Source: a virus (lineage: Duplodnaviria; Heunggongvirae; Uroviricota; Caudoviricetes). From it: a stretch of DNA of 45,899 nucleotides. Shown here piece by piece: positions 37,254 through 40,523 of the stretch (its first letter is position 1; each line of letters begins with the position of its first letter). The notes below the pieces were generated by a model. That model saw nothing but the letters and a program-made list of their open reading frames with translations, had not been told where the DNA came from and made no database searches. Where the stretch lies: the IMG/VR virus record IMGVR_UViG_2711768067_000020, one strand, 5' to 3'. The position numbers were made by a program, and so were the translations under genes.

Positions 37254-37877
37254 ATGCGGCATTTATACGCAACGATATTATTGTTTACTACCCTGCTGGC
37301 AGGAATTGCCTTTCCTGCACAGGCTGAAAGCGGACACGGTGCATTTTCTGTGGGGTACACACAGGTGCACCCGGACGGTACGCCGGGGCTTTCCGGTACC
37401 GGCATCAGGGCCGGCGATCTGAAAGGGATTAATGTGAAATACCGTTATGAGTTCACGGATCACCTGGGCGGCATTGTCGCGCTGAGTTATGCATCGGTGA
37501 AGAAAAGTGACACGATGAAGACGGGTGAAAATACCTTCCATTATGAAAGCCTGCGCGGTCGTTATGTCAGTCTGATGGCCGGCCCTGTCTGGCAGCTCAG
37601 TGAGCGGGTCAGTCTCTATGGCATGGCCGGGATGGCGTACACCCGCTGGTCTGACAGTGTTCAGGATTACCGACGTGATGAAGTGAAACCGGGGTATGTG
37701 AAGGAGACCACCACCGCCAGTGATGGTCATACTGCGCGTCATCTGTCGCCGGCCTGGAATGCCGGGATTCAGTTCAGTCCCGTAGAGACGGTGGTTATTG
37801 ACCTTGCTTATGAAGGTTCCGGCAGTGGCGACTGGCGCACTGACGGCTTCATCGTGGGTGTCGGCTATAAATTCTGA
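37254..37877 (+). CDS. lom: Lom (Ail/Lom-family outer-membrane beta-barrel protein)
   Basis: Signal peptide MRHLYATILLFTTLLAGIAFPAQA; C-terminus AYEGSGSGDWRTDGFIVGVGYKF identical in pattern to lambda Lom. Confidence 0.9.
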   Translation: MRHLYATILLFTTLLAGIAFPAQAESGHGAFSVGYTQVHPDGTPGLSGTGIRAGDLKGINVKYRYEFTDHLGGIVALSYASVKKSDTMKTGENTFHYESLRGRYVSLMAGPVWQLSERVSLYGMAGMAYTRWSDSVQDYRRDEVKPGYVKETTTASDGHTARHLSPAWNAGIQFSPVETVVIDLAYEGSGSGDWRTDGFIVGVGYKF

Positions 37878-37941
37878 TTAGCCAGGTAACACAGTGTTAT
37901 GACAGCCCGCCGGTTCAGGCGGGCTTTTTTGTGGGGTGAAT

Positions 37942-38871
37942 ATGGCAGTAAAGATTTCAGGTGTGCTGAAAGACGGCACAGGAAAACCAATACAGAACTG
38001 CACCATTCAACTGAAAGCCAGACGTAACAGCACCACGGTGGTGGTGAACACGGTGGCCTCTGAAAATCCGGATGAGGCAGGGCGTTACAGCATGGACGTC
38101 GAGTATGGTCAGTACAGCGTCACTCTGTTGGTGGAGGGATTCCCTCCATCACATGCCGGGACCATCACCGTGTATGAAGATTCTCAACCGGGGACGCTGA
38201 ATGATTTTCTCGGTGCCATGTCGGAGGATGACGTCCGGCCGGAGGCAATGCGTCGTTTTGAACTGATGGTGGAAGAAGCGGCGCGTCACGCAGAGGAGGC
38301 GAAGAAGAATGCCGGAGAGGCGGAGACATCAGCGAGGAATGCCGGCATATCAGCCAGTCAGGCAGAAGAGAGCGCTGCAAATGCTGACACTTCAGCAGGG
38401 GAGGCATCGGAGTCAGCCCGGCAGGCGGCAGAAAGTGCAGCCGCTGCAAAGCAGTCAGAGGAGGCGTCCTCGTCCTCGGCCTCTGCGGCCGCTCAAAAAG
38501 CCAGTGAGTCATCACAAAGTGCAGCAGATGCTGAATTGTCAAGAAAGACGGCAGAAAGTGCAGCCGGTAATGCAGCCAGGGATGCAACGACCGCAACAGA
38601 AAAAGCCCGGGAGTCAGCAGAAAGCGCACAGTCAGCGGAACAAAGCAGGATAGCGGCGGAAGAGGCCGTAAACCGAATCCCCACCGTGGTGGGACCTCCC
38701 GGGCCAAAGGGGGAACAGGGGCCCGCGGGTCCTCAGGGGCCGAAGGGTGATAAGGGAGAGCGCGGTGACACCGGCCCTGTCGGGGCAACCGGCGAACGGG
38801 GACCGGCAGGTGATGCTGGTCCGGCAGGCCCGCAGGGGCCGAAAGGAGGGGCCGTCTGTGCGCGTGAATGA
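37942..38871 (+). pseudogene. stf: Side tail fibre Stf copy 1, truncated within the collagen-like repeats
   Basis: [17 protein letters not shown]-terminus as lambda Stf; about 906 bp near-identical to stf copy 2, then diverges at about 38848 into an 8-codon tail and stop. Confidence 0.7.
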
Positions 38872-39145
38872 ATTGTTCAGCGCGTATGCGATGGCGGGTG
38901 TGTCTTACAGCCGTGTGTCGACTTTCTCCGGAGATTATCTGCAGGTGACCGACAACAAGGGGAAAACGCATGATGTGCTGACCGGAAGTGATGACGGTCG
39001 CCACAGCAACACGTCTCTGGCGTGGGGAGCTGGCGTGCAGTTTAACCCGACCGAATCCGTGGCCATTGATATTGCTTATGAAGGCTCCGGCAGTGGCGAC
39101 TGGCGCACTGACGGTTTCATCGTGGGTGTCGGTTATAAGTTCTGA
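38848..39145 (+). pseudogene. 3' fragment of a second, divergent lom/ail allele
   Basis: Encodes ...AMAGVSYSRVSTFSGDYLQVTDNKGKTHDVLTGSDDGRHSNTSLAWGAGVQFNPTESVAIDIAYEGSGSGDWRTDGFIVGVGYKF; no N-terminal half or signal peptide; followed by the same intergenic sequence that follows lom. Confidence 0.7.
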
Positions 39146-39209
39146 TTAGCCAGGTAACACAGTGTTATGACAGCCCGCCGGTTCAGGCGGGCTTTTTTGT
39201 GGGGTGAAT

Positions 39210-40523
39210 ATGGCAGTAAAGATTTCAGGTGTACTGAAAGACGGCACAGGAAAACCGGTAGAGAACTGCACCATTCAACTGAAAGCCAGACGGACCAGCA
39301 GCACGGTGGTGGTGAACACGGTGGCCTCTGAAAATCCGGATGAAGCCGGTCGTTACAGCATGGACGTTGAGTACGGTCAGTACAGAGTCATTCTGTTGGT
39401 GGAAGGATTCCCGCCGTCACATGCCGGGACCATCACCGTGTATGAAGATTCTCAACCCGGTACGCTGAATGATTTTCTCGGTGCCATGTCGGAGGATGAC
39501 GTCCGGCCGGAGGCACTGCGCCGTTTTGAACTGATGGTGGAAGAGGTGGCGCGTCACGCTGAGGAGGCGAAGAAGAATGCCGGAGAGGCGGAGACGTCAG
39601 CGAGGAATGCCGGCATATCAGCCAGTCAGGCAGAAGAGAGCGCTGCAAATGCTGACACTTCAGCAGGGGAGGCATCGGAGTCAGCCCGGCAGGCGGCAGA
39701 AAGTGCAGCCTCAGCAAAGCAGTCAGAGGATGCGTCCTCGTCCTCGGCTTCTGCGGCCGCTCAAAAAGCCAGTGAGTCATCACAAAGTGCAGCAGAAGCT
39801 GAATTGTCAAGAAAGACGGCAGAAAGTGCAGCCGGTAATGCAGCCAGGGATGCAACGACCGCAACAGAAAAAGCCCGGGAGTCAGCAGAAAGCGCACAGT
39901 CAGCGGAACAAAGCAGGATAGCGGCGGAAGAGGCCGTAAACCGAATCCCCACCGTGGTGGGACCTCCCGGGCCAAAGGGGGAACAGGGGCCCGCGGGTCC
40001 TCAGGGGCCGAAGGGTGATAAGGGAGAGCGCGGTGACACCGGCCCTGTCGGGGCAACCGGCGAACGGGGACCGGCAGGTGATGCTGGTCCGGCAGGCCCG
40101 CAGGGGCCGAAAGGTGACATGGGAGAGCGGGGAGAGACCGGTCTGACGGGAAATGCAGGTCCACAGGGTCCAAAGGGAGATACCGGTGCGGCAGGCCCGG
40201 CAGGCCCACAGGGACCGAAAGGAGAAACAGGTGCGGCTGGCCCGGTGGGGGCAACCGGACCTCAGGGACCGAAGGGCGACCCGGGGGAGACACAAATACG
40301 GTTCCGTCTGGGGCCGGGAAACATTATTGAGACAAACAGCAATGGCTGGTTCCCGGATACAGATGGCGCACTCATCACCGGACTGACCTTTCTTGACCCC
40401 AAAGATGCCACACGGGTTCAGGGGTTTTTTCAGCATTTGCAGGTCAGGTTTGGTGACGGGCCGTGGCAGGATGTCAAGGGGCTGGATGAAGTGGGCAGTG
40501 ATACAGGCAGAACAGGAGAATGA
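39210..40523 (+). CDS. stf: Side tail fibre protein Stf copy 2 with collagen-like G-X-Y repeats
   Basis: 437 aa; Ala/Ser/Glu-rich coiled region, then about 30 G-X-Y triplets ([31 protein letters not shown]...), then a short C-terminal domain. Confidence 0.8.
   Translation: MAVKISGVLKDGTGKPVENCTIQLKARRTSSTVVVNTVASENPDEAGRYSMDVEYGQYRVILLVEGFPPSHAGTITVYEDSQPGTLNDFLGAMSEDDVRPEALRRFELMVEEVARHAEEAKKNAGEAETSARNAGISASQAEESAANADTSAGEASESARQAAESAASAKQSEDASSSSASAAAQKASESSQSAAEAELSRKTAESAAGNAARDATTATEKARESAESAQSAEQSRIAAEEAVNRIPTVVGPPGPKGEQGPAGPQGPKGDKGERGDTGPVGATGERGPAGDAGPAGPQGPKGDMGERGETGLTGNAGPQGPKGDTGAAGPAGPQGPKGETGAAGPVGATGPQGPKGDPGETQIRFRLGPGNIIETNSNGWFPDTDGALITGLTFLDPKDATRVQGFFQHLQVRFGDGPWQDVKGLDEVGSDTGRTGE

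Follow-up and report, generated by a model that had tools for sequence, protein, structure and literature searches.

An apparent tandem lom–stf duplication in a lambdoid prophage sequence is very probably a scaffolding join of two paralogous prophage contigs

Genes and repeat structure at the lom–stf locus

The viral sequence IMGVR_UViG_2711768067_000020 (45,899 nucleotides, Caudoviricetes; the whole stretch is referred to here as the window) carries an apparent tandem duplication at the junction of two late genes of a lambdoid prophage, lom, encoding an outer-membrane β-barrel protein of the Ail/Lom family, and stf, encoding a side tail fibre. An earlier note, made from the sequence alone, had read this arrangement as a mosaic duplication in which a broken first copy of stf is followed by part of a second lom allele and a complete stf. 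The two halves meet at position 38847, and we call the prophage to the left of this joint prophage X and the prophage to its right prophage Y. L-numbers designate loci of relatives in other public assemblies. The features of the locus are as follows.

33709..37185, + strand: J, tail tip and host-specificity protein of prophage X, 1158 aa (open reading frame; Pfam GpJ domains on the record)
37254..37877, + strand: intact lom allele A, 207 aa, Ail/Lom outer-membrane β-barrel (Pfam PF06316)
37791..38846, + strand: repeat copy 1, comprising the lom 3′ end, the spacer and the 5′ part of stf (self-BLAST)
37904..37925, + strand: terminator-like hairpin and T run in copy 1 of the lom–stf spacer (identical copy at 39172-39193)
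37942..38846, + strand: 5′ part of the prophage X stf (905 nt), up to the point where the left-hand contig stops (0 mismatches to the stf of L009)
38847..38847, no strand: probable scaffold gap; the source record has N, for which the window shows A (comparison of record and window)
38848..39145, + strand: 3′ half of lom allele B, entering the 600-nt gene at nucleotide 303; the right-hand contig (prophage Y) opens here (sequence comparison)
39059..40114, + strand: repeat copy 2 (self-BLAST)
39172..39193, + strand: terminator-like hairpin in copy 2 of the lom–stf spacer, identical to copy 1
39210..40523, + strand: complete prophage Y stf, 437 aa (N-terminal tail-fibre domain, collagen repeats, Phage_fiber_C)
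40525..40794, + strand: gene for an 89-aa Phage_fiber_C protein 3′ of stf (PF06820, E = 1.8e-34)

Self-comparison of positions 37000-41000 returned a single strong direct repeat in which 37791-38846 aligns with 39059-40114 over 1056 bp at 96.4% identity, with 38 mismatches and 0 gaps. The period is 1268 bp, in agreement with the earlier estimate, and identity at neighbouring offsets is at most 35%, so the repeat stands far above chance. Mismatches are unevenly distributed along it: 8 fall in the final 87 bp of lom, 0 in the spacer, 25 within 37965-38328 and 5 within 38329-38529, and the final 317 bp of copy 1 (38530-38846) match copy 2 without a single difference. Upstream of the repeat, the lom 3′ parts that lie in register (37579-37790 and 38847-39058, 212 bp) are only 47% identical, which fits the claim that the second lom fragment belongs to a different allele.

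The proteins predicted from the two halves differ in completeness. Lom A matches the PF06316 profile over positions 1-199 of 199 (E = 9.5e-52) and is thus a full-length Ail/Lom family member; the lom B fragment matches profile positions 105-199 only, and the two alleles share 46% protein identity. The first stf copy breaks after gene nucleotide 905 (window position 38846), inside the collagen-like repeats as had been noticed, and the 309-aa open reading frame called there (37942-38871) contains PF08400 at residues 1-133 and Pfam Collagen at residues 251-302 and lacks Phage_fiber_C. The stf at 39210-40523 holds all three side-tail-fibre regions (PF08400, collagen repeats and PF06820), with an Ala/Ser-rich stretch, read from the translation, between the N-terminal domain and the collagen repeats.

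Several further observations concern the repeat itself. DNA identity between lom A and lom B is ~47% over most of the compared 3′ part and ~91% over the last 87 bp, and the 64-bp lom–stf spacer with its terminator-like hairpin is identical in both copies (in the regions 37791-37943 and 39059-39211). Judged from the sequence, this sharp switch in lom identity looks like a module boundary at which homologous exchange may reshuffle lom and stf. The collagen-like part of stf (39987-40224) contains imperfect internal repeats, with 40086-40150 resembling 39987-40052 at 79% identity and 40185-40224 resembling 40077-40114 at ~85%, and these add to the difficulty of assembling the region.

The joint carries an N in the source record

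We compared the window with the draft record from which it derives and found that it corresponds to positions 1-45899 of CYFS01000017.1 (GCA_001286245.1, 97,248 bp). Precisely where the broken stf meets the lom fragment, at base 38847, the record has an N and the window has an A. Over 2023-45899 window and record agree at every other base, and no second N occurs in record positions 2023-48871. Native sequence at this site is T or C in stf and C in lom; the A fits neither and evidently is a substitute for a gap or ambiguity character that was put in before the sequence was scanned. The replacement explains why a scaffold join looks like a clean junction and why the called reading frame was altered to a 309-aa product: the frame extends to 38871 only because of the artificial join, and it lacks PF06820 because the contig ends. 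A real tandem duplication should be read continuously through its junction, and here the joint base is N; a scaffolding join should carry a gap character, and a single N occupies position 38847. The earlier description of stf as joined directly to the lom fragment therefore does not hold in CYFS01000017.1, in which the two halves are two contigs placed side by side and the junction was never read. A literature search for the CYFS01 record found no paper.

The left contig ends at the boundary of a run shared by two stf paralogues

We aligned the stf of L009 with that of copy 2. Both genes are 1314 nt long and collinear, with 38 differing sites, and nowhere do they agree without a mismatch for longer than over gene nucleotides 589-905 (317 bp), a run whose last base is also the last base of the left contig. 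At nucleotide 906, L009 has C, copy 2 has T and the record has N. Copy 1 shows 0 mismatches to the L009 stf, which runs on to a full 437-aa gene. The left contig thus ends at an exact-repeat boundary between paralogues, as expected of a scaffolding join: where paralogues share a stretch longer than the reads can resolve, a short-read contig or read-based extension must stop at such a point. A real breakpoint would fall just before any one of the 38 distinguishing sites with a chance of ~3% (38 in 1314) and before that particular site with a chance of ~0.1% (1 in 1314).

Each flank continues normally in other assemblies

We next examined relatives of the left flank. The exact J protein occurs in nine other assemblies shown, in each of which it is followed by one 207-aa lom and one full 437-aa stf, and then, at all nine loci, by the 89-aa protein, an NleB-family gene and an NleF-family gene (effectors by Pfam). 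Window positions 23709-38846 are 100.000% identical to L009 and L010 over 15,138 bp and 99.97-99.99% identical to L008, L013 and L014. L015 and L017, which are cut shorter, are 99.99% identical over what they hold, and L012 and L016 are 98.5% identical to the left flank. Every alignment of the left flank to the J-matching loci ends exactly at 38846, from where L009 and L010 run on into a full stf, nleB and zinT; the 3′ part of the prophage X stf begins ...CCGAAAGGCGACAGGGG. In all eight loci that reach the host flank, zinT, msrQ and msrP follow (names given here to the Pfam hits ZinT, Ferric_reduct and Oxidored_molyb), a chromosomal site different from bio. Positions 33710-38846 also match in one piece (97.8%) the J–lom–stf haplotype of a prophage adjoining potB in strain 14EC047. 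No closely related complete E. coli genome with prophage X was found, the best match being 98.1% identical. The record begins within a prophage early region at position 1, so the host site of the left contig is not in the record.

The right flank leads to a different prophage. Over the 7,052 bp of window positions 38848-45899, identity to L026 (part of a 5.1-Mb contig) is 100%, and L025 in the complete genome CP071263.1 differs at 2 positions. Upstream of the matching sequence, L026 and L025 have a J gene and a complete lom B (199 aa), and the 5′ half of lom B and a J gene precede the sequence of 38848..39145 in L026, L025, L001 and others. Downstream, both loci continue as the record itself does, with nleH, cif, nleG, espJ, ybhB and bioA. 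From 38845 on, identity to the ybhB–bioA-site prophage of E. coli 14EC001 is 99.8-99.9%, in an alignment that begins midway in an intact lom of the other allele. Each side thus has 100%-identical relatives (L009 and L010 on the left, L026 on the right) in which it has its native continuation, as it also has in L025 on the right; this is as expected of a scaffolding join, and the suggestion that the two units came from two different prophages is borne out.

The junction was found in one record only

A real duplication should recur in independent assemblies, and in the collections searched it does not. The junction probe was covered by none of 5,426 complete E. coli genomes and none of 50,697 phage records, and the exact junction strings had no match in the GTDB species representatives, IMG/VR or the JGI metagenome contigs. 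The 309-aa junction product was found on one public contig only, CYFS01000017.1 at the window coordinates. The best matches to the whole region are all single lom–stf units of 2,533 bp, the length of the query minus 1268. The index of the public collection lists the exact full-length Stf protein of copy 2 in 141 blocks, of which 31 have no contig longer than 10 kb; short contigs bearing stf are consistent with, though not proof of, a region that often breaks short-read assemblies.

A scaffolding join very probably accounts for the apparent duplication

The single N at the joint, the exact end point of the left contig and the normal continuation of both sides in other assemblies lead us to conclude, with a probability of roughly 90%, that the apparent lom–stf duplication is a scaffolding join of two paralogous prophage contigs and not a real feature of the genome. 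On this explanation, the strain would carry at least two lambdoid prophages with paralogous lom–stf modules. The left contig (1-38846) would belong to prophage X, with J, lom allele A and stf, and the right contig (38848 onwards) to prophage Y at ybhB–bioA, with lom B, stf, the 89-aa fibre protein, nleH, cif, nleG and espJ. A short-read assembler would have extended the left contig to the end of the 317-bp shared run and no further, since the next base differs between the paralogues. Read pairs from the left contig end could then have reached the stf inside the right contig, which is 97% identical beyond the run, and the scaffolder would have linked the contigs, with the gap between them estimated as zero or negative and an overlap of ~1268 bp implied. 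As the overlapping parts differ by 3.6%, and by about half in lom, no exact end overlap would have been found and one N would have been written. The period of 1268 would then be the overlap length of the two paralogous contigs. Short-read scaffolders such as SSPACE and Velvet write a single N at a zero or negative gap without end overlap; we found no citable statement of this, and the GapFiller paper and two others yielded none that was usable. The note had itself raised the possibility of an assembly collapse: an assembly artefact agrees with these data, and a collapse does not, because a false end-to-end join of overlapping paralogous contigs expands the sequence.

Some points weigh against this explanation. 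For the start of the right-hand contig, at lom B nucleotide 303, no explanatory repeat boundary was found, and the lom alleles compared have no discriminating site there. The absence of junction-spanning reads is deduced from the N. Lambdoid prophages exchange late-gene modules, and a zinT-site prophage that is 100% identical in another strain therefore does not prove the site of the left contig in this strain.

If the contigs were instead in the correct order and the gap concealed a long stretch, prophages X and Y would be adjacent, for instance in tandem at the bio site, and the concealed stretch would contain the rest of X (the stf 3′ part, the fibre protein, effector genes and an attachment site) followed by the left arm of Y from integrase to J and the 5′ half of lom B. 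The scaffolder did link the two contigs, and because the first base of the left contig already lies in a prophage early region, its host site in this strain is not fixed. We nevertheless consider this arrangement very unlikely: prophages with identical J–lom–stf adjoin zinT and not bio in 8 of 8 assemblies reaching the host flank, short-insert read pairs cannot support a link over tens of kilobases, and the shared stf sequence suffices to explain a false link. A real duplication, in which illegitimate recombination between two lambdoid phages fused the stf of one, at nucleotide 905, to the lom of the other, at nucleotide 303, is extremely unlikely. It could have arisen through unequal exchange between two phage genomes or a deletion fusing two prophages, leaving the intact stf preceded by a lom fragment and by a fibre gene truncated to 309 aa, with the N as an uncalled base. 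In its favour, collinearity is kept on either side, neither reading frame is interrupted before the joint, the parents share just two bases there (GG), as is typical of illegitimate joints, and natural mosaics exist at this locus, L018 and L024 each combining a 207-aa, allele-A-sized lom with a Stf protein identical to copy 2. Against this, the region's single N falls exactly on the joint, the stf break lies right before a site that distinguishes the paralogues and at the end of their longest exact run, the junction is in no other assembly searched, and the relatives that are 100% identical to either flank carry just one ordinary unit. The same observations (the N, a junction seen in no other assembly searched and flanks that continue normally) speak against the proposal of a mosaic tandem duplication by recombination with another prophage. 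Nor is derivation of the copies from one another supported: the contig with copy 1 is 100% identical to zinT-site prophages and that with copy 2 to a bio-site prophage, the copies diverge by 3.6%, and the lom parts are 47% identical.

Two further candidates were rejected. Duplication in situ followed by divergence is contradicted by the 47% lom identity together with a 100%-identical relative for each half. Replacement of a J–lom patch in a bio-site prophage, by one homologous and one illegitimate crossover, was dropped because the early region 1-11,500 had no match in the 14EC001 bio-site prophage (blastn, aligned pieces >150 bp) and because the N was found.

Were the joint real, it would represent a fresh illegitimate recombination between co-resident lambdoid prophages at a 1268-bp offset, would place a truncated fibre, tail-attaching yet without a receptor-binding end, upstream of an intact one, and would capture a not-yet-purged intermediate of phage mosaic evolution. 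The scaffolding join carries a caution: a lone N inside draft 'contigs' can conceal a scaffold join, and when the N is swapped for a base before scanning, a false join of paralogous prophages mimics a recombination joint, a tandem duplication and a truncated gene at once. Checking candidate junctions against the original record eliminates such false findings.

Other features of the two prophages

In the left-hand prophage, two tRNA genes, Met-CAT and Arg-TCT (10690-10765 and 10866-10942), lie between an antiterminator-like gene and a gene for a 616-aa DUF1737/SASA esterase. This is the position at which Shiga toxin (Stx) phages carry tRNAs and toxin genes, and no toxin gene is present here. 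Pfam hits on the record also place a 104-aa PerC-family reading frame at 17017-17331 and a 51-aa Hok/Gef-family reading frame at 7398-7553. The PerC family includes prophage-encoded regulators of the locus of enterocyte effacement (LEE) island. The C-terminal third of J (35681-37185) has 72% DNA identity to the J of the 14EC001 bio-site prophage, compared with 94-97% for the N-terminal part, and this divergence is the usual variation of a host-range module; the J of 14EC001 is annotated as frameshifted.

In the right arm (40891-45899; L006, 12959-20930), nleH (OspG_kinase), cif, an NleG-family gene and espJ directly adjoin ybhB–bioA–bioB, the lambda attachment region. Prophages with identical J–lom–stf in other strains carry NleB- and NleF-family genes by zinT. 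The 89-aa protein downstream of stf is named 'phage tail fiber C-terminal domain-containing protein' by the Prokaryotic Genome Annotation Pipeline (PGAP) in relatives. Because PF06820 occurs both in the Stf protein (residues 363-426) and in this small protein (residues 28-89), the downstream gene appears to duplicate the C-terminus of the fibre rather than to encode an assembly protein of the lambda Tfa type.

Comparison with known systems

Both halves of the window are ordinary J–lom–stf modules of lambdoid prophages of the enteropathogenic and enterohaemorrhagic E. coli (EPEC/EHEC) type, each an unexceptional example of the J–lom–stf–tfa right end of the late operon. The order held in common with those prophages is J, an Ail/Lom gene, a hairpin, a fibre gene (PF08400, collagen, Phage_fiber_C), an 89-aa Phage_fiber_C protein and type III effectors, and the differences are allelic only, namely 46% protein identity between lom A and lom B and 72% DNA identity of the J C-terminal part to L001.

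In the Hendrix model, novel joints arise in mosaic phage genomes by illegitimate recombination. If real, the joint at 38847 would be of this type, with two shared bases and a truncated gene and gene fragment left behind; unlike such joints, it is without sequence support, since the joint base is N, and is unique to one draft record. The arrangement instead resembles the false joins that occur at repeated prophage genes in scaffolded short-read assemblies, with a lone N, a contig end at an exact-repeat boundary and flanks that are normal elsewhere. It departs from the usual false join in that the contigs overlap as paralogues by 1268 bp, and so mimic a tandem duplication with 3.6% divergence rather than a simple translocation.

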